A stretch of 34,839 nucleotides of DNA from the NCBI GenBank assembly GCA_021813965.1, contig JAKAJB010000001.1:1-34839 (forward strand), written 5' to 3'. This document shows, piece after piece, positions 2,765-28,584 of this stretch. The DNA is from a bacterium. Its GTDB lineage: Bacteria > Patescibacteriota > Minisyncoccia > Phycocordibacterales > Phycocordibacteraceae. The notes beneath the pieces were generated by a model. The model was not told the origin of the DNA. It saw only the letters and a list, made by a program, of their open reading frames with translations, and did not search any database. Position numbers and translations under genes: made by a program. Every line of letters starts with the position of its first letter. The first letter of the stretch is position 1.

Positions 2765-4321
2765 ATGCAAAGCATCATTGAAAGGATAGAGAAAGAGATC
2801 GCCGCGTGGGCGCCTGACGTCGGTTCCGAAGAGACGGGCGTCGTGCGTGCGACCGGTGACGGCATCGCGGAAATCGACGGCTTGTCGAATGTCGCGATGA
2901 GCGAGATGGTGCTTTTCGACCCCACATTCGACCGCACGCTTGCTGATGCGCTCAAGGATCCCGCTCCGATCTACGGCCTGGTGCTCAACCTCGAGGAAGA
3001 CGGCGTGCGCACGGTGATCCTCGGTGAACCCTCGAAAATCTATGAGGGCATGCTGGTGCGCCGGCTCGGGCGACTCCTCTCGATTTCGGTCGGCGGCTCC
3101 CTCGTCGGTCGCGTGGTGAACCCGCTCGGGGAGCCGGTCGACGGCAAGGGCGCGACCGGCGCGAAAGAAGTGCGCCCGATCGAGCGGGAAGCGTACGGCA
3201 TCATCGATCGCGCGCCGGTGAACGTGCCGCTGCATACCGGTATCAAGGCGGTTGACGCGATGATTCCGATCGGCCGCGGACAGCGCGAGCTCATCATCGG
3301 CGACCGCGGTACCGGCAAGACCAGCATCGCTATCGATACTATCCTGAATCAGAAGAGCGAACCGGCTGCGACACGTCCCATTTGCATCTACGTCGCCATC
3401 GGCCAGAAGGAATCGAAGACGGCGAAGATCGTCGCCGAGCTTGAGAGCCGCGGCGCAATGGCGTACACCGTCGTCGTGACGGCGCCGGCGTCCGCGCCGG
3501 CGGCGCTCCAGTTCCTCGCGCCGTTCGCCGGCGCGACCATCGGCGAGTATTTCATGGAACAAGGGAGGGATGCTCTCGTCATCTACGATGATCTCTCCAA
3601 GCAGGCGGTCGCGTATCGCCAGATGTCGCTTCTCCTGCGCCGCCCGCCGGGCCGCGAAGCATACCCGGGCGACATCTTCTATCTGCACTCGCGCCTCCTC
3701 GAGCGCGCAGCGAAGCTGTCGAAGGAACGGGGCGGCGGCTCATTGACCGCGCTCCCGATCATCGAGACGCAGGAAGGCGACGTGTCGGCCTACATCCCGA
3801 CGAACGTGATCTCGATCACCGACGGACAGATCTACCTCGAAGCGGACCTCTTCAACAAGGGTCAGCGCCCGGCTATCAACGTCGGCATCTCGGTGTCGCG
3901 CGTGGGAAGCGCCGCGCAGACCAAGGCAATGAAGAAAGTGTCGGGCAAGATCAAGCTCGAACTCGCGCAGTTCCGCGAACTCGAAGCCTTCATGCAGTTC
4001 TCGAGCGACCTCGACGCTGACACGAAGCGGCAGATCGACTCGGGCCGCCGCATGACTGAGATCCTGAACCAGGGCCGCGGCGTGCCGCTCCCGTTCGAGA
4101 TGGAATCCGCGATCATCTTCGCGGCGACGAACGGTTACCTCGACGGCGTCCCGGCGGAAGAGGTCAGTGCCGTCGAAGCGAAGCTGCAGGAGTACCTCTC
4201 GCGCGAAGCGGGCGGCGTCCTCATGGCGATCAAGGAGTCGAAAGAGATCCGTGAGGAATCGGAGAAGACGCTCCGCGAGAAACTTCAGGCATTTCTCGAG
4301 CGCACGGTATCCGCCGCATAA
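2765..4321 (+). CDS. atpA: F0F1 ATP synthase subunit alpha
   Basis: Walker [16 protein letters not shown], plus the conserved stretches [42 protein letters not shown] and [24 protein letters not shown]. Confidence 0.97.
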
Positions 4322-4323
4322 TC

Positions 4324-5232
4324 ATGGCACTGAAGGATATCAAGACGAAGATCGCTGCGACACATCGCACGCACAAGGTGACGCGCGCGATGGAAGCTGT
4401 CTCGGCGGTGAAGATGCGCAAGACGCAGGCTGCGGCGCTATCCGGCCGTTCGTATGCGCGCGCCGCGCTCGGGATATTGGCTCGGCTCTCCGGCAGCGCC
4501 GATCTCGCCCGGCATCCGCTCGCGCAGGCCAGGAAGGCGGAGAAAATCGCTCTCGTCATCCTCACGAGCGACAAGGGTCTCGCCGGCGCGCTCAACAGCG
4601 GCGTCATCAAGGCCGCCGCCGAGGCCATCGCGCCGTATGAAAGCGCGGCGGTGACGGTGTATGCCTACGGCAAGAAGGGCGAGGAATATTTCGCACGGCG
4701 CGGCTACCGCATCGCGCGCGCGTTCGAGAACAAGGCGGACACTATCGAATTGTCGGTCATGGAGGAACTCGTCGCGGAGCTCTCTCGGGGATTCGCTGCG
4801 GGGCAGTATGACGAGGTGCTCGTCGCGTACAGCAATTTCAAATCGACGTTCGAACAGGTCCCGTCGGTGCGCCGCCTGCTCCCGCTTGCGCTCGCTGACG
4901 TGACCCGGCTCGTCGCGGACATCATCCCGGAGAAAGGGAAGTGGAGCGAGACGCGCGCGATCGAATCGCCGGCGGCCTATGCCATGGAGCCGGACGATTC
5001 AAATGTCATCGACATCCTCGTGCCGCGCCTCGTCGCCGTCTCGCTCTACCACTTGCTGCTCGAGTCGAAGGCGTCGGAGCACTCGGCGCGCATGGTGGCG
5101 ATGAAGAGCGCGAGCGACAAGTCGAAGGAAGTCGCGCACGACCTCACGCGGCTCTTCAACAAGATCCGTCAGGCGGCCATCACGCGCGAAGTGTCGGAGA
5201 TTATCAGCGGGCGCGAGGCATTAGCCGCGTGA
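4324..5232 (+). CDS. atpG: F0F1 ATP synthase subunit gamma
   Basis: N-terminus LKDIKTKIAATHRTHKVTRAMEAVSAVKMRK and C-terminus NKIRQAAITREVSEIISG are the gamma coiled-coil signatures. Confidence 0.95.
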   Translation: MALKDIKTKIAATHRTHKVTRAMEAVSAVKMRKTQAAALSGRSYARAALGILARLSGSADLARHPLAQARKAEKIALVILTSDKGLAGALNSGVIKAAAEAIAPYESAAVTVYAYGKKGEEYFARRGYRIARAFENKADTIELSVMEELVAELSRGFAAGQYDEVLVAYSNFKSTFEQVPSVRRLLPLALADVTRLVADIIPEKGKWSETRAIESPAAYAMEPDDSNVIDILVPRLVAVSLYHLLLESKASEHSARMVAMKSASDKSKEVAHDLTRLFNKIRQAAITREVSEIISGREALAA

Positions 5233-5262: not shown

Positions 5263-6681
<1,419 letters not shown>

Positions 6682-8311: not shown

Positions 8312-9412
8312 ATGATGTTGAAGATAGGCATCGTCGGCTTGCCGAACGTCGGGAAATCGACGCTTTTTAATGCGCTCACGAAGGCTTCCGTGCCGGCGGA
8401 GAATTATCCGTTCTGCACCATCGACCCTTCGGTCGGCGTCGTCGGCGTGCCTGACGAGCGTCTCGGTGCGCTCGAACGCTTCTCGAAGAGCGAAAAGACC
8501 GTTCCGGCCGCGATTGAGTTCGTGGACATCGCCGGTCTCGTGAAGGGCGCGGCCCTTGGCGAAGGGCTCGGGAACCAGTTCCTCGCGAATATCCGCGAGA
8601 CCGACGCGATCCTCCAGGTCGTGCGTTTCTTCGATGATGCCGACGTGCATCATGTCGAAGGCGACATCGAGCCGTACAAGGATATCGAGATCATCAACCT
8701 CGAGCTCGCGCTCGCCGATGCCGAACAGGTGCGGAAGCGCCGCGATAAGCTCACTGGGGACGTGAAGCGCGGCGCGAAAGAAGCGATCGCAGAAGATGCT
8801 GTGCTCGCGAAGCTCGCGCAGGGCTTCGCGGCCGGGAAGCTTGCGCTCCATGCCGGCCTCACCGATGAGGAGAAGAAACTCGTCCAGAATCTGAACCTGC
8901 TCACGATGAAGCCGATCCTCTACGCGCTCAACCGAAAGAGCGGCGGGCACAACCTCGACGAGCTCGCTGACGGGCGCGCTTCGCGCGCCTATGAGCTCAT
9001 CGAAGCGCTCGGCGGACGTTACGTCTTCGTCGACGCTGCGACCGAACGCGAATTGAACGACGTCGCTGACGATGACCGCGAGACGTTCCGCCAAGAACTC
9101 GGCGTGACGGAGAACGGCCTCGCCGACCTCATCCGCGGCGCCTACGGTACGCTCGGCCTCATCTCATTCTTCACGACCGGCGCCGATGAGACGCGCGCAT
9201 GGACTATCACGAGGGGCAGCACGGCGCCGGTCGCCGGCGCCGCCATCCATAACGATTTCCTTACCAAGTTCATCCGCGCCGAAGTCATCGAGTGGGACAA
9301 GCTCCTCGAGCTCGGCTCCTATGCCGCCGCCCGCGAGAAGGGTCAAGTCCGCGTCGAAGGGAAGGAGTACGTCGTTGCCGACGGCGACGTCATGGTGTTT
9401 TTGCACGGATAG
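8312..9412 (+). CDS. ychF: Ribosome-binding ATPase YchF
   Basis: G1 motif GIVGLPNVGKSTLFNALT, FCTIDP, DIAGLVKGA, and the C-terminal TGS-like region (AWTI.RGSTAP.AAG.IH.DF...FIRAEV). Confidence 0.95.
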   Translation: MMLKIGIVGLPNVGKSTLFNALTKASVPAENYPFCTIDPSVGVVGVPDERLGALERFSKSEKTVPAAIEFVDIAGLVKGAALGEGLGNQFLANIRETDAILQVVRFFDDADVHHVEGDIEPYKDIEIINLELALADAEQVRKRRDKLTGDVKRGAKEAIAEDAVLAKLAQGFAAGKLALHAGLTDEEKKLVQNLNLLTMKPILYALNRKSGGHNLDELADGRASRAYELIEALGGRYVFVDAATERELNDVADDDRETFRQELGVTENGLADLIRGAYGTLGLISFFTTGADETRAWTITRGSTAPVAGAAIHNDFLTKFIRAEVIEWDKLLELGSYAAAREKGQVRVEGKEYVVADGDVMVFLHG

Positions 9413-9464
9413 GGAAACGCTCGTTTTTCATTATGGCAGCGCTGTGTAGGGCTTTCCTTTTGCG

Positions 9465-9473
9465 TGGTATAAT
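9465..9473 (+). promoter_or_regulatory. Extended -10 box TGgTATAAT, 8 nt upstream of the ATG at 9482
   Basis: TGGTATAAT at 9465-9473. No SD between the box and the ATG. Confidence 0.5.
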
Positions 9474-9481
9474 GCGCGCCT

Positions 9482-10024
9482 ATGGAAACAATCACCTCGA
9501 AGCCGCCGAAATTCGTCCGCTGGGCGCTTTTGATAGGCATCGTCGTCATCCTCAACGTCTTTTTCTCGGTCGTGCTCGCCGTCGCGTATCCGGCCCCGGT
9601 CTATAACGATTTCTGTCCGACGCAATCCATGGTCTCGCCGACCAATGCCGCGACCTGTGACGCTCAAGGCGGCATCTGGACGGAGTATCCAGCGGCGGTC
9701 GCACCAGACGTGTCGGCACCGAAAGCGACCGGGTACTGCGACATGTACGCGAAATGCCAGCAGCCATTCCAGGCTGCAAGCGACCGCTATGCGCTATACG
9801 CGTTCGTTCTCATGACCGTACTCGGCATCATTTCGCTCATCGTCGGCTTCATGCCGATCGGCTCCTCGATCGTCTCATCCGGCCTCTCCTATGGCGGCGT
9901 CGTCGCTATCATCGTCGGATCGGTAGAGTACTGGGGCACGGCGGGGAACTGGCTCCGTCTCGCTATCGCGACAGCAGGCCTCATCGCGCTGCTCTACATC
10001 GGCACGAAGCGTTTCCGCGATTAG
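9482..10024 (+). CDS. Hypothetical membrane protein with a Cys-containing extracytoplasmic loop
   Basis: One N-terminal TM helix, an extracytoplasmic loop of about 70 aa with 4 Cys, then 3 more TM helices. The stop lies 4 nt before leuS. Confidence 0.7.
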   Translation: METITSKPPKFVRWALLIGIVVILNVFFSVVLAVAYPAPVYNDFCPTQSMVSPTNAATCDAQGGIWTEYPAAVAPDVSAPKATGYCDMYAKCQQPFQAASDRYALYAFVLMTVLGIISLIVGFMPIGSSIVSSGLSYGGVVAIIVGSVEYWGTAGNWLRLAIATAGLIALLYIGTKRFRD

Positions 10025-10028
10025 TCCT

Positions 10029-12866
10029 ATGGCGCGAGAGAAATTCGATCATGCGGGCGTAGAGAAGAAGTGGCAAGCAATATGGAAAGAGAAGGGGCTC
10101 TACCGCTCGACCGAAGATAAAGACAAGAAGAAAGCCTATGTGCTCGACATGTTCCCGTACCCTTCGGGCGAAGGACTTCATGTCGGCCACCCGAAAGGAT
10201 ACATCGCGACAGACATCTACTCCCGCCACAAGCGCATGAGCGGCTATTCCGTGCTGCACCCGATGGGGTGGGACGCTTTCGGCCTGCCGGCCGAGAACTA
10301 CGCGCTCAAGAACAAGGTGCATCCGCGCGCGGCGGTGGAGAAGAACATAGAGAATTTCAAGAAGCAGCTCGCGCATATCGGCTTCGATTACGACTGGTCT
10401 CGCGAGATAAATACGACCGACCCTTCTTACTACCACTGGACGCAGTGGATCTTCCTCAAGATGCTCGAACAAGGCCTCGCCTTCCAATCGAACGAGCCCA
10501 TCAACTGGTGCCCCTCCTGCATGACCGGCCTCGCGAATGAGGATCTCGATGGCGCCGTCTGCGAGCGGTGCGGCACGCCGGTCGTGAAGAAGAATCTGCC
10601 GCAATGGGTTCTGAAGATCACTGATTACGCGGACCGTATGCTCGCCGACCTCGATACGCTCAACTGGCCGGAACATATCAAAGAAGCGCAGCGCAACTGG
10701 ATCGGCCGCTCCGAGGGCGCGGAGATAGATTTCCCGATCACCGGCGGCGGAACATCCGTCAGAGTGTTCACGACTCGCGCCGACACCATCTACGGCGCGA
10801 CGTATCTCGTGCTCGCGCCGGAGCATGCGCTCGTCGAAGAGCTGATCGCCTCCGGCGTAGTGAAGAACGCCGATGCGGTGCGCGCGTATGCCGAGGCCGC
10901 GGCGGTCAAATCCGAAATCGACCGCAGCGCAGAAGGGAAGGAGAAGACCGGCGTACCGCTCGAAGGCGTCTCGGCGATCAACCCGGCGACCAAAGAAGCG
11001 ATACCGGTCTATGTCGCCGACTACGTCCTCGGCGGGTACGGGACCGGCGCCATCATGGCCGTCCCCGCGCACGACGAGCGCGATCTCGCATTCGCGCAGA
11101 AGATGCATTTGCCGGTCCGCGCCGTCATCGAGCCTATCCTTACGCAAACCGAAGGATCTGCGACCTTCCGCGCCGATGAACCGGTGACGGATTCATTCGG
11201 CGTCATCGCTCTCATACGACATTGGGAAAACGATTCCTATATCGGTCTGTATTGGCCGGGCGCGAAATGGGGAACGCTCCTCACTGGCACTATCGATGAC
11301 GGATTTTCGCCGGAAGAGACCGTCCTGAAGGAGATCCGCGAAGAGACCGGCTATATACACGCGCGCATCGTGCGGCCGCTCGGGAAGATACACAGCCGGT
11401 ACTATCACGAGCCGAAGCGGCAGAACCGCTTCGGACACGCCCCGGCATTCTACGTCGAGCTCGCCGACGGCGCGCGCGAGGATGTCTCTGCGGAAGAAGT
11501 TGCGAAACACGAGGTGCGCTGGCTCTCGCTTCCCGAGCTCCGCTCGTTCCTGACCGCCAATTCGCACCAGGTCGCTCTCGACCTCTTCGAGCGCGGCGTG
11601 TATACCGGTCCGGGCATCCTCGCGAACTCCGGCGAATTCGACGGACGTGACAGCAGCGAGGCGAAAGACGAAATCGTCGCAAGCGTCGGCGGCAAGACCG
11701 TCGTGCGGTACAAGCTGCGCGATTGGGTATTCAGCCGACAGCGCTATTGGGGCGAGCCGATTCCGGTCATCCACTGTCCCAAGGACGGCGTCGTCCCCGT
11801 TCCATATGAAGACCTCCCGGTGAAGCTTCCGGAAGTAGAGTCCTACGAACCGACCGGCACCGGCGAGTCGCCGCTCGCGGCCATCGACGAGTGGGTCAAC
11901 ACTACATGCCCGAAATGCAAGGGACCGGCGAAGCGCGAGACTAACACGATGCCGCAATGGGCCGGCTCATCGTGGTATTACCTGCGCTTCATGGACCCGC
12001 ATGACGATACGCAGCTCGTCTCCACGAAAAACGAGAAGTACTGGGCGCCGGTCGATGTGTACGTGGGCGGCGATCATGCGGTCCGGCACCTCATCTACGC
12101 GCGTTTCTGGCACAAGTTCCTCTATGACATCGGCGTCGTGAGTACGAGGGAGCCGTTCGCCCGGCTCGAATTCCTCGGCTTCATCCTGGACGAACACGGA
12201 CAGAAGATGAGCAAATCGAAGGGGAACGTCATCAACCCCGACGCGGTCATCGAAGAATACGGGGCCGATGCGTTCCGCATCTACGAGATGTTCATGGGGC
12301 CGTTCGAGAACACGACGGCCTGGAGCACGGCGTCCATCGCCGGCACCGCGCGATTCATCGAACGCCTGTGGCGCCTCCAGGATTCGGTCGCCGAGGCTCC
12401 GGTCCCGGCGCTGGATGCGCTCTTGCACGAGACGGTCCGCAAGGTAGGCGATGATATCGAGTCGTTCAAATTCAATACCGCTGTGAGCCAGATGATGATC
12501 TTCCTGAACGCCGTCGAGAAAGAAGGTTCGATCGGGAAAGAGCAGTGGCGCATGTACCTGCGCGTGCTCGCGCCGTTCGCACCGCACATCACTGAAGAGC
12601 TTTGGCAACGGCTCGGGGAGGAGGACTCCATACATCACGCATCGTGGCCCGCGTATGACGAGTCGCTGCTCATCGCGGAGGAAGTCGAAGTCACCGTGCA
12701 GGTGAACGGCAAGCGTCGCGGTTCAGTGCGGCTCGCGGCGAACGGCACGGAAGAGGACGCGGTCGCGGCGGCGCGCGCGCTCCCTGCGGTGACCGCTGCG
12801 CTCGGCAATACCGCGCCGGAGCGCGTCATTTACAAGCCGGGTAGAATCTTAAACCTCGTGGTATAA
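10029..12866 (+). CDS. leuS: Leucine--tRNA ligase with an embedded Nudix-like domain (945 aa)
   Basis: Class-I signatures PYPSGEGLHVGHPKGY (HIGH) and KMSKSKGN (KMSKS). Also the ZN1 CxxC...CxxC pair, the CP1 editing motifs TTRADTIYGATY and GTGAIMAVPAHDERD, and the C-terminal tail KPGRILNLVV. Confidence 0.97.
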   Translation: MAREKFDHAGVEKKWQAIWKEKGLYRSTEDKDKKKAYVLDMFPYPSGEGLHVGHPKGYIATDIYSRHKRMSGYSVLHPMGWDAFGLPAENYALKNKVHPRAAVEKNIENFKKQLAHIGFDYDWSREINTTDPSYYHWTQWIFLKMLEQGLAFQSNEPINWCPSCMTGLANEDLDGAVCERCGTPVVKKNLPQWVLKITDYADRMLADLDTLNWPEHIKEAQRNWIGRSEGAEIDFPITGGGTSVRVFTTRADTIYGATYLVLAPEHALVEELIASGVVKNADAVRAYAEAAAVKSEIDRSAEGKEKTGVPLEGVSAINPATKEAIPVYVADYVLGGYGTGAIMAVPAHDERDLAFAQKMHLPVRAVIEPILTQTEGSATFRADEPVTDSFGVIALIRHWENDSYIGLYWPGAKWGTLLTGTIDDGFSPEETVLKEIREETGYIHARIVRPLGKIHSRYYHEPKRQNRFGHAPAFYVELADGAREDVSAEEVAKHEVRWLSLPELRSFLTANSHQVALDLFERGVYTGPGILANSGEFDGRDSSEAKDEIVASVGGKTVVRYKLRDWVFSRQRYWGEPIPVIHCPKDGVVPVPYEDLPVKLPEVESYEPTGTGESPLAAIDEWVNTTCPKCKGPAKRETNTMPQWAGSSWYYLRFMDPHDDTQLVSTKNEKYWAPVDVYVGGDHAVRHLIYARFWHKFLYDIGVVSTREPFARLEFLGFILDEHGQKMSKSKGNVINPDAVIEEYGADAFRIYEMFMGPFENTTAWSTASIAGTARFIERLWRLQDSVAEAPVPALDALLHETVRKVGDDIESFKFNTAVSQMMIFLNAVEKEGSIGKEQWRMYLRVLAPFAPHITEELWQRLGEEDSIHHASWPAYDESLLIAEEVEVTVQVNGKRRGSVRLAANGTEEDAVAAARALPAVTAALGNTAPERVIYKPGRILNLVV
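11166..11612 (+). other. Nudix-hydrolase-like domain inserted in-frame in LeuRS (about residues 380-528)
   Basis: The 23-residue Nudix box aligns without gaps: GTIDDGFSPEETVLKEIREETGY (11286-11354) against G-x5-E-x7-R-E-U-x-E-E-x-G-U. Position 7 is F instead of E and position 15 is K instead of R. The domain is flanked by the LeuRS segments VRAVIEP and GILANSGEFDG. Confidence 0.75.
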
Positions 12867-12913: not shown

Positions 12914-14002
12914 ATGACCAAGGGTACCAAGGCGAAGACGGCAAAAAAAGGCTCCGCGGCGAAAAAGCCTGTGTCTGTCTCGTTTTCTTTTGATAGCTCC
13001 GCACTGGTGAAGAAACTCCTTGCGGCCGCTCCTGAGCGCGCGCGGGAAGTGCTCATCCGCCGTTTCGGCCTCGGTACCGACGCCGCTCGCGAAACGCTCG
13101 AAGCCATCGGCGATCGCTCGAGCATCACGCGCGAGCGCGTCCGCCAGATTGAAGCCGCCGGCCTCGACGCCGTCCGCGCAAGCAAAGCGTTCAAGGAAGC
13201 GAAAGCTGCGTTCGTCGAACTCTCTGAATACATCCACTCGCTCGGCGTCATCGTCCCCGAAGAAGAACTCCTCCTCGCGCTCGGGAAAGATGAGAAGACC
13301 CGCAACCGTTTCCGTTTCCTCCTCGTGCTCGATTCCTCTTTTTTCCGCGAACGCGAGACGAACGACTTCCTCTCCCGCTGGCACATCGACGCGGCGACGG
13401 CGAAGAGCATCCACGAGGCGCTCTCGCGCCTCTACGCCTCGCTTCCGGACGACGAGGTCATCTCCGAAGGCGACCTGCTCGACCGTTTCCTCGATGAGCT
13501 CAAGGGCGTGAACGATGCGTACAAGAATGAAGAGGTGATGAAGCGCTGGCTCTCGCTCTCTAAGCGCATCGGCAGCAATCCGCTCGGCGAATGGGGTCGC
13601 ACGACCGCACCGGCCATCCGCATCAAAGGCATCCGCGATTATGCGTACCTCGCTATCAAACGCCATGGCGAACCGATGCACTTCTCGGAAGTCGCGAAAA
13701 CCATCGGCACGCTTTTCTCCAAGAAGGCGCATGTCGCGACGACCCATAACGAGCTCATCAAGGATCCTCGTTTCGTGCTCGTCGGCCGGGGACTCTACGC
13801 GCTCACCGAGTGGGGCTATAAGCCGGGCGTCGTCCGCGACGTCATCCGCGAGACGCTCGAGAAGACAGGCCCCATGAAGAAGGACGAGATCATCAAGCAG
13901 GTGAAGGAGGCTCGGTTCGTGAAGGACAACACCATCCTCGTGAACCTCAACGATTCTCGCTATTTCAAGCGGATGAAAGACGGTCGCTATACGGCGGTCT
14001 AA
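12914..14002 (+). CDS. Sigma-70 region-4-like HTH plus HARE-HTH (RNAP delta-like) domain protein
   Basis: Lys-rich N-terminal tail. RAREVLIRRFGLG....TLEAIGDRSSITRERVRQIEAAGL matches sigma region 4.2. The C-terminal part (AYLAIKRHGEPMHFSEVAKTI.....HNELIKDPRFVLVGRGLYALTEWGY) matches the HARE-HTH pattern of RpoE(delta). Confidence 0.8.
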   Translation: MTKGTKAKTAKKGSAAKKPVSVSFSFDSSALVKKLLAAAPERAREVLIRRFGLGTDAARETLEAIGDRSSITRERVRQIEAAGLDAVRASKAFKEAKAAFVELSEYIHSLGVIVPEEELLLALGKDEKTRNRFRFLLVLDSSFFRERETNDFLSRWHIDAATAKSIHEALSRLYASLPDDEVISEGDLLDRFLDELKGVNDAYKNEEVMKRWLSLSKRIGSNPLGEWGRTTAPAIRIKGIRDYAYLAIKRHGEPMHFSEVAKTIGTLFSKKAHVATTHNELIKDPRFVLVGRGLYALTEWGYKPGVVRDVIRETLEKTGPMKKDEIIKQVKEARFVKDNTILVNLNDSRYFKRMKDGRYTAV

Positions 14003-21496: not shown

Positions 21497-21570
21497 CGGC
21501 ATGACTCAGCGCCGCAAGAACTGCGGCGTTCGTTTTTATGCCACCCCGAGGCGTGCGCTATACTGATTCC

Positions 21571-22134
21571 ATGAACCACACGCCGCAGATAAAGAAAGCG
21601 ATACAATTCGCCGCCAGAAAGCACCACGGGCAGATGCGCCTGGAAACAGAACCCTTGCCCTACATCACCCACCTTTTCTCGGTCGCGCTCTTGGTCGCCG
21701 AGGATGGTGCGAGCGACGATGTCGTCACGGCGGCACTCCTGCACGACACGCTCGAAGACACTCCCACGACGCGCGAAGAGATCGTCGCAGCATTCAACGA
21801 GCATGTCGCGGAGCTCGTCGAAGCGGTGAGCGAGAAAAAAAATCTTCCTTGGAAAGAGCGGAAGGAGGACTACCTTGCGAATCTCAAGACCGCTCCTGCC
21901 GACGCGGTGCTCATCGCTACCGCCGACAAGATCGATAATATCGAGAGTAAGATAGAGGCCTACCGGAAAGAAGGCGCGACGCTCTTGAATCGCTGGAAAC
22001 AGCCCTCAAGCGAATACCTCTGGTACCACGGCGAAGCGCTCCGCATCGCGCAGGCGCGTCTGCCGGAGCATCCGCTCACCAAGCGTCTCGCCGAAGCGCA
22101 CGCCGAAGAGATGGACGTCTTCTCAGAAAAGTGA
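21571..22134 (+). CDS. HD-domain hydrolase, SpoT/Mesh1-like small (p)ppGpp hydrolase family
   Basis: A.KHHGQMR......PYITHLFSVALLV.....SDDVVTAALLHDTLEDT is the HD_4 pattern (H...HD...D). TATACT at 21559-21564 lies 6 nt upstream of this ATG. Confidence 0.85.
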   Translation: MNHTPQIKKAIQFAARKHHGQMRLETEPLPYITHLFSVALLVAEDGASDDVVTAALLHDTLEDTPTTREEIVAAFNEHVAELVEAVSEKKNLPWKERKEDYLANLKTAPADAVLIATADKIDNIESKIEAYRKEGATLLNRWKQPSSEYLWYHGEALRIAQARLPEHPLTKRLAEAHAEEMDVFSEK

Positions 22135-22219: not shown

Positions 22220-24181
22220 TTACCAGATTTTCGCGCGATTCCTCGGCTCGCGATACAGTGCGTCACCCTTCTTCACGCCGAACGCCTCATAGAACTCGGG
22301 AATATTCGAGAGCGGACCATTCACGCGGAAGCGCGAAGGGGAGTGCGGGTCGGTCAGCACCTGTGTCTTGCGGAACTCCGGGCGTTCTTGCTCGCGCTCA
22401 GTCGTCGCGTAGCCCAGGAAGAAGCGCTGCTCAGGAGTGAAGCCGTCGATATCTTTACGGCCCGTCTCTTTCAAGCGGAGCTGATAGGCGTCATATGCGA
22501 TCGAGATGCCGCCAAGGTCGGCGATATTCTCGCCGAGCGTGAGCTGGCCGTTCACGTTCATGCCGGGAGCGACGGCATATCCGTTAAATTCTTTCACGAG
22601 CGTCTTCGCCTTCAGCGCAAAACGCTTCGCGTCCGTCGGCGTCCACCAGGTCTTCCTGTTCCCCTTGCCGTCAAACTTACAGCCCTGATCATCAAACCCG
22701 TGCGTTATCTCATGCCCGATGACTGAGCCTATCGCGCCGTAGTTGAACGCATCATCGGCCGTGACCTCGAAGAACGGGTGCTGCAGAATAGCCGCAGGAA
22801 AGACGACGTCGTTCAGACCGAAACTGCAATACGCATTCACCGTCTGGGGACTCATGAACCACTCCTTGTGGTCGACCGGCTTGGCTAGGCGACGAATCGC
22901 GCGCCGGTGCTCATACGTAGAAACACGCAAGACGTTACCGGCATACTCGTCGGCATCGATGACGAGACCCTTGTAACTCTTCCATTTGTCCGGGTAGCCG
23001 AGTTTGCGATTCATCTGATGCAATTTCTTAATAGCTTTTTTCTTCGTCTCCGGGCTCATCCAATCGAGATTCTTGATACGAGCCTCATACGCGCGGAAGA
23101 GATCGGCGACGATGAGCGCGACCTTATGTTTCGCCTCGGCAGGAAAGTACTCCTCCACATAGAGCTCGCCGAAGACTTCGGAGAGCCCGCCGTTCACGAC
23201 GCGGAGTATGCGGCGCCACAACGGCTTCATATGTTTCGTGCCCATGAGCGCCGTAGCGTAGAAAGCGAAGTTCTCTTTCTCGAGCTCGGGAGTGAGGAAC
23301 GAGGAAAAGTCGCTGATGAGGTGCGTGCGGAGGTAGATCTGCCAGGCCTCGATCGGATACGCGGTGAGCATCTTGTCTGCCGCCATGAAGAAATCCGGCT
23401 GCATCACGACGACCTCTCGCGGTTCGGCACCGAGGATCTTGAAATAATCCTGCCAATCGATGCGTGGCGTCAGTTTTTTCAGCTGAGAAAGCGATTTCTT
23501 GTGGTACGTCTTATCGACGTCGCGCAGATCCTCTTTCTTCATCGAGGCTTTCGCGATAGCGGTCTCTATGTTGAGTACGAGAGTCATCTCTTCTTTCGCC
23601 GTGGTCTTCCGACCGGCAAGTTCCAGGAGTCGCACGAGATACGCTTGGTACGCCGTGCGCACCCGTACGGACTCTTCATCATTCTTCAGATAGTAGTCGC
23701 GGTCCGGCATGCCGAGGCCGCCCTGTCCGAGATAGAGGATGTACTTCTCGCTGTCTTTCATATCCTGGTCGATACCGGCACCCCATACGCCGCCCGAGCC
23801 GACGCTCTCAAGGAGCGCGACCGTTGCCACGACGTCTTGCGGCGTCTCGATGCTCTCGATGCGCTTCAGAAGCGGCGCGAGCGGAGTGAGGCCGAGCTCC
23901 TTGCGGCGCTTCAAGTCCATGCCGGAAGAGTAGAGATCGCGGATCATCTGCTCCGGGCTCCCTTTTTCTGCTCGCTTCCTCTCAACGACCTTCTTCAAAA
24001 GAGCATTGAGCTGCTTGTCGGTCGTATGACGGAGCTCGGTAAAAGAACCCCACCGCGACTCAGTTTTCGGTATCGGATTCTTCCGCATCCAGTTCCCGCT
24101 CGCATAGTGAAAGAAGTCGTCCTGCGGACGCACCGTCGTATCGATATCTCGCACATCAAATCCCCATCCTTTTTTTATCAT
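22220..24181 (-). CDS. pepO: M13-family zinc metallopeptidase (PepO/neprilysin-like)
   Basis: HEITHGFDDQG (HExxH), ENIADLGG, NAYC and the C-terminal W. No obvious signal peptide. Confidence 0.93.
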   Translation of the reverse strand: MIKKGWGFDVRDIDTTVRPQDDFFHYASGNWMRKNPIPKTESRWGSFTELRHTTDKQLNALLKKVVERKRAEKGSPEQMIRDLYSSGMDLKRRKELGLTPLAPLLKRIESIETPQDVVATVALLESVGSGGVWGAGIDQDMKDSEKYILYLGQGGLGMPDRDYYLKNDEESVRVRTAYQAYLVRLLELAGRKTTAKEEMTLVLNIETAIAKASMKKEDLRDVDKTYHKKSLSQLKKLTPRIDWQDYFKILGAEPREVVVMQPDFFMAADKMLTAYPIEAWQIYLRTHLISDFSSFLTPELEKENFAFYATALMGTKHMKPLWRRILRVVNGGLSEVFGELYVEEYFPAEAKHKVALIVADLFRAYEARIKNLDWMSPETKKKAIKKLHQMNRKLGYPDKWKSYKGLVIDADEYAGNVLRVSTYEHRRAIRRLAKPVDHKEWFMSPQTVNAYCSFGLNDVVFPAAILQHPFFEVTADDAFNYGAIGSVIGHEITHGFDDQGCKFDGKGNRKTWWTPTDAKRFALKAKTLVKEFNGYAVAPGMNVNGQLTLGENIADLGGISIAYDAYQLRLKETGRKDIDGFTPEQRFFLGYATTEREQERPEFRKTQVLTDPHSPSRFRVNGPLSNIPEFYEAFGVKKGDALYREPRNRAKIW

Positions 24182-24228
24182 GCGTCCATAGTATATGAAT
24201 CTTTTATCTCATGCTATCTTTCTCCCAT

Positions 24229-26199
24229 ATGACTGTCGCAGATGTACGCACGCGATACCTCGATTTCTTCGCCAAGCGCGGGCATGCCGTCATCCCTTCG
24301 GCGCCGATCGTGCCGGAGAACGACCCGACCACGCTTTTCACCAGCAGCGGTATGCAGCCATTGGTGCCATACCTCTTGGGCCAGCCGCACCCAGAGGGGG
24401 CGCGGCTCGTCGACTCGCAGATGTCATTCCGCGCGGAAGATATCGAAGAAGTCGGCGACAATCGCCACACGACGTTCTTCGAGATGCTCGGCAATTGGAG
24501 CCTCGGCGATTATTTCAAGCAAGAGCAGCTGCCGTGGTTCTTCGAATTCCTGACGAGCGGGGAAGAAGGCCTCGGGCTCGACCCGGCGAAGCTCTACGTC
24601 ACGGTCTTCGGCGGCGACGAGGAGTCCGGTATGGCTGCTGACTCCGAGTCGGTCGAGATATGGAAGAAGCTTTTCGGTGAGAAGGGGATTAACGCGGCTT
24701 TCGTCGAGCTCGGCACCGAAGAGCACGGGAACGAAGTCGGCATGCAGGGCGGCCGCATCTTCTCGTACGGCGCGCGGAAGAACTGGTGGAGCCGCGCCGG
24801 CGTCCCCGCCAAGATGCCCGCGGGAGAGATCGGCGGCCCGGACTCCGAGATGTTCTATGATTTCGGCCTCCCGCACGATCCGGCCTTCGGCCCCGAGTGC
24901 CACCCCAACTGCGACTGCGGGCGTTTCGTCGAGATCGGCAATTCCGTCTTCATGCAGTTCATCAAGCAGGACGACGGCACGTTCAAGGAATTACCGAAGA
25001 AGAACGTCGACTTCGGCGGCGGCCTCGAGCGCCTCACGGCCGCGACGCGCGATGATGCTGACATCTTCCTCACCGACGTATTCGATGCTGCTCGTACCGT
25101 CCTCGAGACCCGCTCCGGCAAAGCTTATACAAGGTTGAACCTTGTAGAAAAAGATGGCGCAGATACGAGGTCGTTCAGGATCATCCTCGACCACATGCGT
25201 GCCGCCTCGTTCATGCTCGCAAGCGGCATCCGTCCGGCAAACTCCGAGCAGGGGTACGTGCTCCGCCGCCTCATCCGCCGCTCCATCCGCGAAGCCGACA
25301 AGCTCGGCATCAAAGACGCGGTGCTCGCCGAAGTCGCCGAGGGATGCGGCGCAGCTTATGCCGAGGCGTATCCCTTCGTGCAGGCCGCCGCACGGGCTAT
25401 CCGCGAAGAACTCGAGAAAGAGGAGGCGCAATTCAGGAAGACGCTCGCGAACGGCATGCGTCAGTTTGAAAAAATACAGTGGATGGGAGTTCCTGATGAA
25501 GCACTGCCGTCAAATAATCAAACGGCAGCCATAGCGGGACACGTAGAAAAGGTTCTGCCGAGTAATATTGTTTTTGAACTTTACACAACATATGGATTCC
25601 CAGTTGAGATGACTGAGGAAATTGCGAAGGAACGCGGAGCAATCATTAATAAAGAGGAAGTTGCTGAAAAAATGAAAGAGCACCAGGTGCTCTCGCGTGC
25701 CGGTGCAGCACAGAAGTTCGCGGGCGGACTCGCCGACCAGGCCGAACAGACGGTCCGCTACCACACCGCGCATCATCTTCTCCTCAAGGCGCTCCAGATA
25801 GTGCTCGGAAGCGACGTGCATCAGCGCGGCAGCAACATCACGAGCGAACGCCTGCGTATCGACTTCTCGTACGGAGCAAAAATGACGGACGAGCAGAAAA
25901 CGACTGTGGAGAAGATCGTGAACGAGAAGATCGCCGCAGCGCTCCCGGTCATCCGCACGGACATGAAGAAGGAAGAGGCGGAGAAACTCGGTGCCGAGCA
26001 CGAGTTCGGCGCTTCGTATCCCGATATCGTCTCGGTGTATTCGGTCGGCCCGCTCGATAACGCTTTTTCCATAGAGTTCTGCGGCGGCCCGCACGTGAGC
26101 AACACGAGCGAGCTCGGCGCGGACGGCAGGCATTTCAAGATACTGAAGGAAGAAGCTTCATCCGCCGGCGTCCGCCGCATCAAAGCGGTTTTGCAATAA
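24229..26199 (+). CDS. alaS: Alanine--tRNA ligase lacking the C-Ala domain (656 aa from this start)
   Basis: VRTRYLDFFAKRGHAVIPSAPIVPENDPTTLFTSSGMQP, FFEMLGNWSLGDYFK, the editing-domain motifs HTAHHLL and CGGPHV, and the end GVRRIKAV. The track start 24211 lies inside a -10-like box (TGCTATCTT, 24212-24220), so 24229 is preferred. Confidence 0.93.
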   Translation: MTVADVRTRYLDFFAKRGHAVIPSAPIVPENDPTTLFTSSGMQPLVPYLLGQPHPEGARLVDSQMSFRAEDIEEVGDNRHTTFFEMLGNWSLGDYFKQEQLPWFFEFLTSGEEGLGLDPAKLYVTVFGGDEESGMAADSESVEIWKKLFGEKGINAAFVELGTEEHGNEVGMQGGRIFSYGARKNWWSRAGVPAKMPAGEIGGPDSEMFYDFGLPHDPAFGPECHPNCDCGRFVEIGNSVFMQFIKQDDGTFKELPKKNVDFGGGLERLTAATRDDADIFLTDVFDAARTVLETRSGKAYTRLNLVEKDGADTRSFRIILDHMRAASFMLASGIRPANSEQGYVLRRLIRRSIREADKLGIKDAVLAEVAEGCGAAYAEAYPFVQAAARAIREELEKEEAQFRKTLANGMRQFEKIQWMGVPDEALPSNNQTAAIAGHVEKVLPSNIVFELYTTYGFPVEMTEEIAKERGAIINKEEVAEKMKEHQVLSRAGAAQKFAGGLADQAEQTVRYHTAHHLLLKALQIVLGSDVHQRGSNITSERLRIDFSYGAKMTDEQKTTVEKIVNEKIAAALPVIRTDMKKEEAEKLGAEHEFGASYPDIVSVYSVGPLDNAFSIEFCGGPHVSNTSELGADGRHFKILKEEASSAGVRRIKAVLQ

Positions 26200-26210
26200 T
26201 CGCGGCATCC

Positions 26211-26248
26211 ATTGCGCCGCATGCGAAACCCGTCGCATGCGGCGCAAT
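26211..26248 (+). terminator. Perfect 16-bp inverted repeat after alaS (terminator or operator)
   Basis: ATTGCGCCGCATGCGA (26211-26226) / TCGCATGCGGCGCAAT (26233-26248) with loop AACCCG. No U-tract. It abuts the next promoter. Confidence 0.5.
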
Positions 26249-26256
26249 GCTAAAAT
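26248..26256 (+). promoter_or_regulatory. Extended -10 box TGcTAAAAT, 7 nt upstream of the ATG at 26264
   Basis: TGCTAAAAT at 26248-26256. The track start at 26237 lies inside the hairpin. Confidence 0.5.
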
Positions 26257-26263
26257 AAACCGG

Positions 26264-27319
26264 ATGAATTTTCTTGAGAACCTCTTTTCGAAAAAGAAGT
26301 ACGCGGAATCAATCGTCCTGATCGATATCGGTGCCGATACCGTCGCCGGCGCGTATGTGCACTATTCGGACGGGGAACAGCCGACAATCCTCTACGTACG
26401 CCGCCTGCCCATCGAGATACGCCCGGATGAAGCGCACGATCGTGCCATGGTGCGCGCGCTCGAATTGCTCGCCGCCGACCTTATCCGCGAAGGCGCCCCC
26501 GTCCTCGCGCGAGCGACCGGCAGCGGAAGCATCGGGTCTATCCTCGTCTCGGTCGACGCGCCCTGGCAGGAAACGCGCGTACACACGGAGTATTTCGAAC
26601 AAGACGAATCTTTCATCTTCACCAAGGAATTGGTCGAGGCGAAACTGAAGAGCAGCGCTGCGGTATCTTCGGAAGAATTGCTCGCAGACACAAGCATCAT
26701 CGGCACCATCCTGAACGGCTATGAGACGAATAATCCATACGGCAGACGGGTCCATCGCGCGTCGATTATCGCGCTCACGTCGATTATCCAGCGAAGCGTC
26801 GCGGACGACATCTTGAGAGTGCTCAGCCGCAGTTATCACACCAAGAAGGTGTTCCCGATTGCCGGCAGCTCCCTTCGCTATCAGGCGATGCGGATACTGT
26901 TCCCGCACGAGCGGGACGCGCTCATCATCGACGCAACCGGTCGCGCCCTGACTTCCATTTCTCTTGTACGGAAAGGGATGTTCGTCACGATGGTCCATGT
27001 GGAGACCCGCTCCGATGACACCGAATGGGTGCCTGCCGTCACCAAGGAACTCGCGGAGCTAGCGAAGCATTACCCGTTGCCGCGCACCATCTTCCTGCTC
27101 GCACGCGAACAAGAGGTCGCGAGCCTGCGAGAGAAGCTCGATACGGCGAATTTCGCTCCGCTCTGGTTCGGCGATGCGCCGCCGAAAATCGTCGCCGTCC
27201 AAAAAAGCTTCGTCGGGGCTTCCGTACGGCAGATGACCACCAACACGCCCGGCCTCGTCGTCCTCCTCATGACGTTGTACTTCCGCGATCGGCACGCCGG
27301 ATCGGGCGAGATCCGGTAA
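26264..27319 (+). CDS. Hypothetical protein, possible actin-like (ASKHA; PilM/FtsA-like) fold
   Basis: The N-terminal IVLIDIGADTVAGAYV and the later ALIIDATGRALTSISLV resemble ASKHA phosphate-1 and phosphate-2 motifs. The coding call is firmer than the fold call. Confidence 0.6.
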   Translation: MNFLENLFSKKKYAESIVLIDIGADTVAGAYVHYSDGEQPTILYVRRLPIEIRPDEAHDRAMVRALELLAADLIREGAPVLARATGSGSIGSILVSVDAPWQETRVHTEYFEQDESFIFTKELVEAKLKSSAAVSSEELLADTSIIGTILNGYETNNPYGRRVHRASIIALTSIIQRSVADDILRVLSRSYHTKKVFPIAGSSLRYQAMRILFPHERDALIIDATGRALTSISLVRKGMFVTMVHVETRSDDTEWVPAVTKELAELAKHYPLPRTIFLLAREQEVASLREKLDTANFAPLWFGDAPPKIVAVQKSFVGASVRQMTTNTPGLVVLLMTLYFRDRHAGSGEIR

Positions 27320-27369: not shown

Positions 27370-28584
27370 ATGCATAAAATCGATGACATAATCCCGCCGT
27401 CCAAACGCCGCGAAAGCGAAAACCTTACCAACGAATCCGTCCCCCGCCGACCGCTCCATCTCTCGCAACACACGCCGGGTTTCCCGGTGAAGACTCTCGC
27501 TGCGGTCCTCATCGTGATTGTCGCGTCTTTCTGCGCACTGTATTACTTCTCTAGCGCGAAGGTCGAGATAACGCCGAGCACCGTCTCGGCGGCCGTCCAA
27601 AACTCTTTCACGGCGACAGAGAGCTCCGGCGATTTGCCCTACGAGATAATCACCTCGCAGAAAATAGCCTCGCAGAGCGTTAAGAGCAGCGGGACGAAAG
27701 AGGTCAATTCGTCCGCGTCCGGCACCATCACGATCTACAACACCCAATCGAAAGCGCAGCGGCTCATCACGAACACCCGCTTCGCGACGACCGCCGGCCT
27801 TATTTTCCGCATTCACACCGGCGTGACGATTCCTGCGGGCAGCGCGGCGAAGCCGGGCTCCCTGACGGCGAAAGTCTATGCTGACAAGACAGGCGATGCC
27901 TATAACGTCGGCCCGACGTCGTTCACCATCCCCGGATTCGCCGGCACGCCGCAAGAAAGCGAAGTGTACGCCCGATCGAGCGATGCCATGACCGGCGGCG
28001 CATCCGGTATGGTGCCACTCATCGATACCGCGCTCGAGACGCAGACCACGAACGCGCTTACTGCGGCACTCGCTCCCGAACTGGCAGCAAGCATTCAGGC
28101 TCTTGTCCCGACTGGCTACGTGCTTCTGCCCGGCGCTTCGACAACAACGCTCCAGGAACTCGCACCGGCGACTTCGTCGACGACCGGTATGGTCGAAGTG
28201 CGAGAGCAAGGCACCATCACCGCCGTCGTGTTCCCGAATGCCGCTCTCGCAAAGGCGGTGGCCACGTCCATCGCCGGTCTCGGCTATCAGGGCGAGCCGC
28301 TTACGCTCGCTCCGGCAAGCGACCTGACCCTCTCAGCAATCAGCCTCCCGGATGCGAATTCCTCCTCGTTCACCTTCACGCTGGCCGGCACGGCATCGCT
28401 TATCTACACCATAGATCCTACGCGCATTGCTGCCGCCGTCGCCGGAAAGACCCGCTCGGCCGCCGAAGTTGCGCTGACGAACTACCCCGAAGTCAAGCGC
28501 GCCGTCATCGTTCTTCGGCCGTTCTGGCGCCAATCGTTCCCCCAAGACCCTGCTTCCATATCGGTAACGACCGTTACCCCCTAG
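27370..28584 (+). CDS. Bitopic membrane protein: short cytoplasmic N-peptide, one TM helix, extracytoplasmic Ser/Thr/Ala-rich domain of about 330 aa
   Basis: MHKIDDIIPPSKRR..., then TM helix LAAVLIVIVASFCALYYF, then a beta-rich domain (GTITIYN...RLITNTRFAT..GLIFRI, YNVGPTSFTIPGF). Confidence 0.75.
   Translation: MHKIDDIIPPSKRRESENLTNESVPRRPLHLSQHTPGFPVKTLAAVLIVIVASFCALYYFSSAKVEITPSTVSAAVQNSFTATESSGDLPYEIITSQKIASQSVKSSGTKEVNSSASGTITIYNTQSKAQRLITNTRFATTAGLIFRIHTGVTIPAGSAAKPGSLTAKVYADKTGDAYNVGPTSFTIPGFAGTPQESEVYARSSDAMTGGASGMVPLIDTALETQTTNALTAALAPELAASIQALVPTGYVLLPGASTTTLQELAPATSSTTGMVEVREQGTITAVVFPNAALAKAVATSIAGLGYQGEPLTLAPASDLTLSAISLPDANSSSFTFTLAGTASLIYTIDPTRIAAAVAGKTRSAAEVALTNYPEVKRAVIVLRPFWRQSFPQDPASISVTTVTP

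Follow-up and report, generated by a model that had tools for sequence, protein, structure and literature searches.

What is a Nudix hydrolase domain doing inside the leucyl-tRNA synthetase (LeuRS) of a Patescibacterium? The question is raised by a 34,839-nucleotide stretch of DNA (contig JAKAJB010000001.1, assembly GCA_021813965.1; the whole stretch is called the window here), in which a preliminary description had recognized a Nudix domain nested in an intact LeuRS. Our analysis bears this out, with HMM (hidden Markov model) score, fold, glutamate conservation and purifying selection in agreement. We interpret the insert as a real Nudix pyrophosphohydrolase module, kept by selection and probably active in catalysis, in an otherwise complete LeuRS, for which a free nucleotide-type substrate is favored, and we assign this interpretation a probability of about 55%. 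The relevant features of the window are the following.

10029-12866, forward strand: LeuRS open reading frame (ORF), stop codon included, 945 amino acids (aa) (ORF list, TIGR00396, alignment to T. thermophilus LeuRS 1H3N)
10179-10190, forward strand: HIGH signature HVGH, residues 51-54 (translation; invariant in the alignment of homologues)
10692-11138, forward strand: CP1 editing domain, part 1, residues 222-370 (PF13603 on residues 222-374, profile positions 1-147 of 185)
10770-10787, forward strand: T-rich editing motif TTRADT, residues 248-253 (motif conservation check)
11067-11084, forward strand: editing Asp motif AHDERD, residues 347-352 (motif conservation check)
11139-11600, forward strand: nested Nudix module, residues 371-524 (N-terminal extension strand, alpha/beta/alpha core, C-terminal helix)
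11286-11354, forward strand: Nudix box GTIDDGFSPEETVLKEIREETGY, residues 420-442 (translation and conservation in 90 orthologues)
11400-11429, forward strand: X-loop aromatic pair Y458-Y459 and subfamily motif K463-x2-N466-R467 (conservation in 90 orthologues)
11496-11522, forward strand: subfamily motif E490-x3-H494-x3-W498 (also kept in site-B, site-C and free-standing copies)
11601-11723, forward strand: CP1 editing domain, part 2, YTGPGILANSGEF...KLRD, residues 525-565 (second PF13603 stretch; aligns with T. thermophilus residue 375 onward)
12204-12218, forward strand: KMSKS loop, residues 726-730 (translation and motif check)

The Pfam NUDIX model PF00293 scored 43.8 bits (E 3e-11) on the whole protein and 47.7 bits (E 2e-12) on the insert alone. 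Since 47.7 bits stand against a cut-off of 21.1, the match is real and far beyond chance, and the domain check that the preliminary description had proposed came out in its favor. PF00293 is already annotated on 90 of 90 insert-bearing homologues. An AlphaFold2 (AF2) model of the insert, built on a 45-sequence alignment, had a predicted local distance difference test score (pLDDT) of 96 and a predicted template-modelling score (pTM) of 0.89, and showed a mixed sheet flanked by helices. When this model was compared with the PDB by Foldseek, 493 matches were obtained at E ≤ 1e-3. The best 50 of these 493 were all Nudix proteins, and the compact single-domain matches had template-modelling (TM) scores of 0.73-0.80, normalized by target length, and of 0.76-0.80 at the top of the list. 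The best matches were 2AZW (E. faecalis MutT/Nudix), 3I7U (Aquifex Ap4A hydrolase) and the T. thermophilus Ap6A hydrolase Ndx1; M. smegmatis MutT1, the M. tuberculosis diadenosine polyphosphatase Rv2985, Chlamydia CT771, NudI and RppH were also among the top matches. A profile search of PDB sequences retrieved 129 distinct chain sequences, and the matches listed were Nudix, with the lupin Ap4A hydrolase first. By HMM score and by its modelled fold, the insert is a member of the Nudix superfamily. Assignment to a characterized Nudix family by sequence was attempted and rejected, the PDB and NCBIfam matches coming from the Nudix box alone.

The 23-residue box GTIDDGFSPEETVLKEIREETGY was found at residues 420-442 just as first described, with F at position 7 and K at position 15. 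When compared with the box G-x5-E-x7-R-E-U-x-E-E-x-G-U, positions G1, E16, I17, E19, E20 and G22 match, and position 23 is Y, not a bulky aliphatic residue. Among the 90 insert-bearing orthologues no variation was observed at G420, E435, E439, K463 and W498, and E438 was kept in 88. Another set of residues, W409, G425, G441, N466, R467, L478 and E490, was present in at least 75 of the 90 (N466 in 77, R467 in 75 and E490 in 86). The mean identity among the same orthologues is 38% in the insert vs. 69% in the core. The predicted metal-binding glutamates at box positions 16, 19 and 20 (E435, E438 and E439) are invariant or nearly so, and so is a subfamily signature made up of W409, K463, N466, R467, E490, H494 and W498. 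The glutamate triad was intact in 83 of 86 copies at site A (the position occupied in the window), 17 of 17 at site B, 3 of 3 at site C and 24 of 29 free-standing copies.

Box positions 7 and 15 behaved differently from the glutamates: they varied as a pair among the orthologues (E-R in 39, M-K in 15, Q-A in 13 and F-K in 8). Changing together is the behavior expected of a structural salt-bridge pair, and it leaves the metal-binding glutamates untouched. The E7/R15 pair is lost in the window protein and in about half of the orthologues, and this brings in a first alternative, namely that the domain is a non-catalytic Nudix fold, serving as a nucleotide sensor or allosteric regulator of LeuRS (cf. 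the NrtR type and the MutY C-terminal domain) or as an extra surface for tRNA or protein contacts. Non-enzymatic Nudix domains are a recognized class (PMC5389931), and the rigid junctions of the full-length model presented below could transmit conformational signals to CP1. However, glutamates 16, 19 and 20 hardly vary, if at all, among copies with only 25-40% identity elsewhere, which is the pattern of an active site rather than of a binding fold, and positions 7 and 15, far from decaying, change in concert. We consider a purely non-catalytic role doubtful.

Downstream of the box, Y458 and Y459 are found at +16 and +17, and Y or F occupies these positions in nearly all family members. An X-loop Tyr ∼16-18 residues after the Nudix box correlates with ApnA hydrolases (Dunn et al., 1999, summarized in PMC5389931). 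Both Y458 and Y459 agree with this rule for ApnA (Ap4A/Ap6A) hydrolases, which is itself correlative.

Is the host protein a complete LeuRS? TIGR00396 (leuS_bact) scored 976.6 bits on the 945-aa ORF vs. a cut-off of 548.4, in three stretches, and T. thermophilus LeuRS (PDB 1H3N) aligned with it at E 1e-229, in three alignment blocks. The HIGH, ZN1, T-rich, GTG, editing Asp and KMSKS motifs, the anticodon-binding domain and the C-terminal domain all align with the T. thermophilus enzyme. The GTG motif and AHDERD together span residues 338-352, and D349 and D352 of the editing site showed no variation in 120 of 120 homologues. By these alignments the window protein is a bona fide bacterial-type LeuRS with its catalytic and editing motifs intact, in keeping with the earlier account of a 945-aa LeuRS with HIGH, ZN1, CP1, KMSKS and the C-terminal domain in place.

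One part of the canonical enzyme is missing. The leucine-specific domain occurs in T. thermophilus and E. coli LeuRS, yet it is not universal. In the window protein these ∼60 residues before KMSKS (T. thermophilus ∼578-637) are absent, residues 720 to 727 corresponding to T. thermophilus 578 to 638 (window ∼12186-12218). The ∼791-aa relatives without the insert likewise have no leucine-specific domain, so its absence is a trait of the lineage and no argument against LeuRS identity; it is also the reason why the insert-less form is only ∼790 aa long. The preliminary description had contrasted the 945 aa with the ∼860 aa of E. coli LeuRS: the presence of an insert stands, and the core to which it is added is in fact ∼790 aa, the leucine-specific domain being absent.

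Comparison with 30 insert-less relatives of ∼791 aa and with T. thermophilus LeuRS delimited the insert to ∼154 residues, from ∼369/371 to 524 (nt ∼11139-11600). It replaces a 9-12-residue loop (T. thermophilus residues 364-374), at which the insert-less relative P0008 reads VIESTNLPHVEKGVL. The PF13603 editing-domain match is interrupted by the insert at profile position 147 of 185, and the insertion point lies ∼20 residues past the conserved editing Asp, in a hairpin loop within CP1. The insertion site is within the CP1 editing domain, at the tip of a two-stranded hairpin. The coordinates first given, 11166-11612, come within ∼30 nt of the refined ones; the accompanying placement of the insert between the end of CP1 and the next segment must be corrected, since the split PF13603 match shows the site to be inside CP1. 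In an AF2 model of the full-length LeuRS (pLDDT 84, pTM 0.72), strands 367-372 and 529-531 form a short stalk. The module is modelled as rigidly mounted on the CP1 hairpin with no floppy linker, because pLDDT was 86-94 in the insert blocks and 84-89 in the junction blocks. The structure model that had been proposed as a check returned, with high confidence, a Nudix alpha/beta/alpha fold on the CP1 hairpin.

The window is probably a contig derived from a metagenome, and for this reason it is conceivable that an assembly chimera or a frameshift artefact fused a Nudix gene to LeuRS; nothing else was found in favor of this explanation. The same 945-aa protein, identical, is present on a separate 7.7-kb ENA contig (P0001), and a Logan assembly (L002) carries an 87%-identical orthologue with the same neighbors. 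The neighborhood shared by the window and L002 consists of an ATP synthase operon, YchF, a small membrane protein, LeuRS and a sigma70_r4-like protein. The GC content is even across both insert junctions, and a Nudix domain lies within the LeuRS ORF in 79 species-representative genomes. Independent assemblies and conserved synteny thus exclude, for practical purposes, the chimera against which the preliminary description had advised a check. Of the 120 best LeuRS homologues, the survey of orthologues it had also proposed found 90 with the insert (60-87% identity, 932-965 aa) and 30 without it. Between the window and L002, the ratio of nonsynonymous to synonymous substitution rates (dN/dS) was 0.095 for the insert, compared with 0.071 for the remainder of the gene and 0.108 for CP1. 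By these ratios the insert is under purifying selection and selectively maintained.

How widespread is this kind of Nudix domain, and is it found outside LeuRS? The insert alone was used in an exhaustive phmmer search of 1.84 billion representative proteins, which gave 286 matches at E ≤ 1e-3. Among the best 150 of the 286 matches, the long ones were all LeuRS or LeuRS fragments, and ∼30 were free-standing proteins of 150-190 aa. The free-standing relatives (∼160 aa) share the whole signature, including the N-terminal extension, and the five that were looked up are all real genes, on contigs of up to 299 kb. A word-indexed search with the insert and short flanks gave zero matches; this was discarded as an artefact of index sensitivity, the exhaustive and full-length searches having returned many relatives.

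A scan of species-representative genomes, with patterns taken from eight close LeuRS-embedded sequences, gave 80 loci, and in 79 of the 80 the domain was in the LeuRS ORF; because of its patterns the scan is biased to LeuRS-embedded type-1 inserts, and the 79/80 is to be read beside the unbiased phmmer search. The loci are labelled Paceibacterota, Parcubacteria, Sungiibacteriota, Nomura-, Taylor-, Zambryski-, Kaiser- and Berkelbacteria, and 'Saccharibacteria'. At the remaining locus (L043), a separate 163-aa Nudix ORF (4034-4450) lies 62 nt upstream of a leuS gene (4512 onward) that carries its own site-A Nudix. Taken together, the searches point to a subfamily found almost nowhere but in Patescibacterial LeuRS, apart from small free-standing relatives. 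Two loci labelled Gammaproteobacteria (L060 and L062) and one labelled Woesearchaeota archaeon (L067) encode the same bacterial-type Nudix-LeuRS, and these bins are probably mislabelled or contaminated.

Within LeuRS, up to four insertion points were observed. Besides site A they are, in window numbering, ∼209-212 and 235-247 (start of CP1) and ∼628-636 (catalytic core). Up to three Nudix copies occur per protein, the multi-copy set being P0121, P0122, P0083, L048, L073 and L078. Three giant LeuRS ORFs, of 1735 aa (L078, Taylorbacteria), 1559 aa (L073) and 1539 aa (L048), have three Nudix copies each, and a 1390-aa LeuRS ORF (L044) has two; all four contain additional unassigned inserts of ∼130-200 residues. 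Other folds were found in LeuRS as well: an alpha/beta serine hydrolase (residues ∼240-400 in P0009, P0030 and P0089) and a Ham1/ITPase domain (residues 246-389 in P0093) at the second insertion point, near the start of CP1, and, C-terminal of the Nudix insert of P0109, a weak ASCH match below the Pfam cut-off (residues 604-693). Except for P0089, the proteins with other inserted domains also have the site-A Nudix.

Free-standing members were found near leuS in two of six cases examined (L003 and L043), with no LeuRS nearby in the other four, and a conserved neighborhood of free-standing Nudix and leuS is not claimed as a rule. In L003 the free-standing member (6001-6549) is 2.4 kb upstream of an insert-less leuS (8476-11389). 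It shares a cluster of genes read in one direction with MetRS, TatD, an HD-domain protein and another Nudix that is unrelated to it; the Nudix gene immediately before leuS is of a different subfamily. Fusion of the subfamily to proteins other than LeuRS was considered and set aside, most apparent cases being LeuRS fragments. In one 251-aa protein (P0204) a subfamily member follows a weak HGTP_anticodon match (18.9 bits, below cut-off), and this could be a class II synthetase fragment fused to it.

In a subclade of Nudix-bearing LeuRS (P0040, P0054, P0066, P0079, P0092, P0094, P0099, P0113, P0119 and P0120), the FTTRPDT editing motif is replaced by a conserved FSAHFEAF.ADTF, in the columns of window residues 247-259. 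The GTG region is altered too, and the editing Asp is retained. The editing site of this subclade may be remodelled or inactive.

Patchiness was also observed at short evolutionary distance. On a rough neighbor-joining (NJ) tree of the LeuRS core, presence vs. absence of the insert required at least 21 changes. The window protein, P0002 and P0008 share 87-89% core identity, and P0008 is without the insert. Its locus (L001) has the same neighbors, with an upstream membrane protein 74% and a downstream sigma-like protein 99% identical to those of the window, and its state is most simply a clean in-frame loss of the insert. The next-closest cores (81-82% identity) have either no insert or one that is 25-31% identical to that of the window, and the same insert type (62-76% insert identity) sits in LeuRS of lower core identity, 72-78%. 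Binned identity showed that the discordance is restricted to the insert and that the CP1 flanks do not follow it. Because the discordance is confined to the insert, it follows that one and the same loop has, time and again, lost its insert, regained one or exchanged it for a different member of a single Nudix subfamily. Along the same pair of loci, the sigma70_r4/HARE-HTH-like protein (window 12914-14002 vs. L001 2900-3466) is 99% identical, LeuRS 89% and the upstream membrane protein 74%. The DNA identity along the window vs. the L001 locus ranges from 61% to 100%, with 100% at the L001 end and no clean breakpoint at gene borders; this pattern reflects either uneven divergence or a recombination tract.

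Such turnover raises the question of whether the insert is a neutral or selfish cassette, spreading intein-like among LeuRS genes by recombination via their conserved flanks and having no selected function. The 21 or more changes, the insert-only discordance with the core phylogeny and the syntenic orthologue without the insert are what such a passenger would leave behind. In contrast, the dN/dS of 0.095 and the invariant catalytic residues speak for selection on the insert itself. The hallmarks of a mobile intein were not observed either. The insert starts with (P)ILTQ and ends with ...FERGV before YTG; it has no intein junction residues and no Hint or homing endonuclease domain, and we rejected an intein. 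A search for an insertion scar in the form of a flanking direct repeat gave only an imperfect 11-mer (11112-11122 / 11605-11615), probably a chance occurrence, and the junction sequences vary among insert types. We regard a mere passenger as very improbable.

What, then, would a maintained module do? The preliminary description had offered, as inference, the clearance of Ap4A, the hydrolysis of non-cognate adenylates and an action on tRNA or RNA 5' ends, and these ideas keep the rank of proposals. Under the favored interpretation, the Nudix domain would bind a divalent metal and cleave a pyrophosphate bond of some free nucleotide-type substrate, the candidates being dinucleoside polyphosphates (e.g., Ap4A) and nucleoside triphosphate (NTP)-like 'house-cleaning' substrates. 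In this way LeuRS would be equipped, on its mobile CP1 domain, to clean up nucleotides by itself. Synthetases make ApnA (e.g., Ap4A) when ATP attacks the aminoacyl-adenylate. Such a substrate is favored because (i) the structural neighbors are ApnA and NTP hydrolases; (ii) the X-loop has the aromatic pair correlated with ApnA hydrolases; (iii) the invariant basic residues suit a polyphosphate chain; (iv) the free-standing homologues must work without a tRNA-binding scaffold; and (v) some relatives carry a further inserted fold for nucleotide house-cleaning (Ham1). The structural neighbors and the X-loop aromatic lean only weakly toward ApnA/NTP-type substrates. The hydrolase could either be linked mechanistically to the chemistry of LeuRS or simply use it as an essential, constitutively expressed anchor.

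Several observations weigh against this interpretation. Box positions 7 and 15 are F426 and K434, where the consensus has E and R. None of the curated NCBIfam Nudix models reached its cut-off, the best on the window protein being TIGR00052 (15.6 vs. 79.55 bits); for this reason the module is not filed as an ApnA hydrolase, and the likeness is structural only. The enrichment of ApnA hydrolases among the structural neighbors may reflect size, the best ones being the smallest Nudix proteins. LeuRS is, in the older E. coli literature, a weak Ap4A producer. The syntenic and yet insert-less P0008 implies that the insert is dispensable for LeuRS function. Finally, the near-exclusive association with LeuRS, at several sites, could point to a role directed to tRNA or to LeuRS.

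The last point leads to another alternative. CP1 binds the acceptor end of tRNALeu, and a Nudix domain mounted on it might act RppH-like on RNA or tRNA ends instead of on free nucleotides. It would remove a 5'-triphosphate or Np4A-type cap, or a 3'-pyrophosphate/ADP-ribose-type adduct, from tRNALeu before charging. The commonest weak NCBIfam matches of the family were RppH, NudB, NudE, YtkD and MutT. The RppH models NF001936/NF001938 matched weakly in 39 of 45 family members (best E 3.9e-9), the model of YtkD ('RNA deprotection pyrophosphohydrolase') did so in 23 of 45, and RppH structures were among the Foldseek matches. A subfamily that is nearly LeuRS-exclusive and is inserted at as many as four places around CP1 and the catalytic core is easier to understand if bound tRNA must be near, and the invariant K463 and the basic R467 could bind a phosphate backbone. 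However, the RppH and YtkD scores are all far under the curated cut-offs (with the RppH models the window protein scored 11-13 bits vs. 116-118), and the ∼160-aa free-standing members, in the four of six cases with no LeuRS nearby, must work without a tRNA-binding scaffold. Moreover, bacterial tRNA 5' ends are normally the monophosphates left by RNase P. An action on RNA or tRNA ends is a serious possibility, although we judge it unlikely.

A bolder proposal is that the LeuRS-tethered Nudix is a built-in tRNA/RNA end-processing station, or a new kind of synthetase proofreading that hydrolyzes products derived from non-cognate adenylates. We hold this to be rather unlikely. If it were true, the repeated independent acquisition at the same loop would indicate strong selection for the coupled activity in bacteria of the candidate phyla radiation (CPR). 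The interpretation that we prefer is still that of a probable pyrophosphohydrolase with a free nucleotide-type substrate.

Elsewhere in the window, other genes deserve mention. A 198-aa ORF (21538-22131) has an HD_4 domain (66 bits), the RelA/SpoT-type hydrolase fold of small alarmone hydrolases. The alanyl-tRNA synthetase (24211-26196) is only 662 aa long and stops right after the second additional domain, with no C-terminal C-Ala domain. Three ORFs of 441, 360 and 404 aa (22907-24229, 26237-27316 and 27370-28581) have no Pfam match at E ≤ 1e-3.

Few enzymes are as conserved as the aminoacyl-tRNA synthetases, and new biology has come repeatedly from their accessory domains, editing, signalling and alarmone synthesis included. 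An additional catalytic domain, apparently active, within the LeuRS proofreading domain, across a large part of the Patescibacteria, would add to these. With the Nudix activity coupled to the synthetase, tRNA charging would be tied in a new way to nucleotide or RNA-end quality control in minimal-genome organisms. If it is uncoupled, we are left with a striking natural nested domain insertion and rapid cassette turnover in an essential gene, of use both in protein engineering and in the study of how functions are packed into CPR genomes.

In practical terms, annotation pipelines currently mis-name or under-name these LeuRS. Many insert-bearing ones (P0017, P0020, P0026, P0030, P0043, P0054, P0066, P0070 and P0092) are named by NCBI only 'class I tRNA ligase family protein' or, in one case, 'alpha/beta fold hydrolase.' The name 'leucine--tRNA ligase' is given to seven of the seven named insert-less relatives and to a few insert-bearing proteins (P0046, P0087 and P0109). 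The inserts appear to break rule-based naming.

The preliminary description had taken the fusion to be uncharacterized, and our full-text literature searches agree: they turned up no paper in which LeuRS, or any other synthetase, is said to contain a Nudix domain. The comprehensive 2017 review of the Nudix clan contains neither 'tRNA' nor 'synthetase' in its text (PMC5389931). The architecture itself is visible in automated Pfam annotations of public proteins. Both components are familiar; their nested arrangement is undescribed, and its multiplicity and turnover are unusual.

When compared with the small Nudix ApnA/NTP hydrolases (3I7U, Ndx1 1VC8, 2AZW, CT771 and NudI), the module has in common with them the alpha/beta/alpha fold, the loop-helix-loop box with glutamates 16, 19 and 20, and the X-loop aromatic, although identity is only 12-24%. 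Unlike these free-standing enzymes, it is nested in another enzyme, has F and K at box positions 7 and 15, and bears its own signature (W409, K-x2-N-R and E-x3-H-x3-W) and an N-terminal extension strand. The RNA pyrophosphohydrolases RppH and YtkD resemble it through frequent weak family matches and, in the case of RppH, as a structural neighbor, with all scores far below cut-offs and no RNA-binding determinants identified. The host enzyme shares its synthetic, editing, anticodon-binding and C-terminal parts with the LeuRS of T. thermophilus (1H3N/2BYT) and E. coli (4AQ7/4ARC); it differs from the former in having a ∼154-residue Nudix in place of loop 364-374 and in the missing leucine-specific domain (T. 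thermophilus ∼578-637).

A curated parallel in design is the NCBIfam exception model NF040702, 'isoleucine--tRNA ligase, N-acetyltransferase domain-containing,' in which a class I synthetase and an unrelated small-molecule enzyme domain are likewise joined in one polypeptide. There the partner is a GNAT domain; here it is a Nudix domain nested in CP1, and there is no curated model for Nudix-LeuRS. Inteins, in turn, offer a likeness in distribution: they too are in-frame inserts in a conserved essential gene, patchy in close relatives and with a phylogeny decoupled from that of the host gene. In contrast to inteins, the LeuRS module has no splicing residues and no Hint or endonuclease domain, and it is a conserved enzyme fold that is evidently kept in the mature protein.

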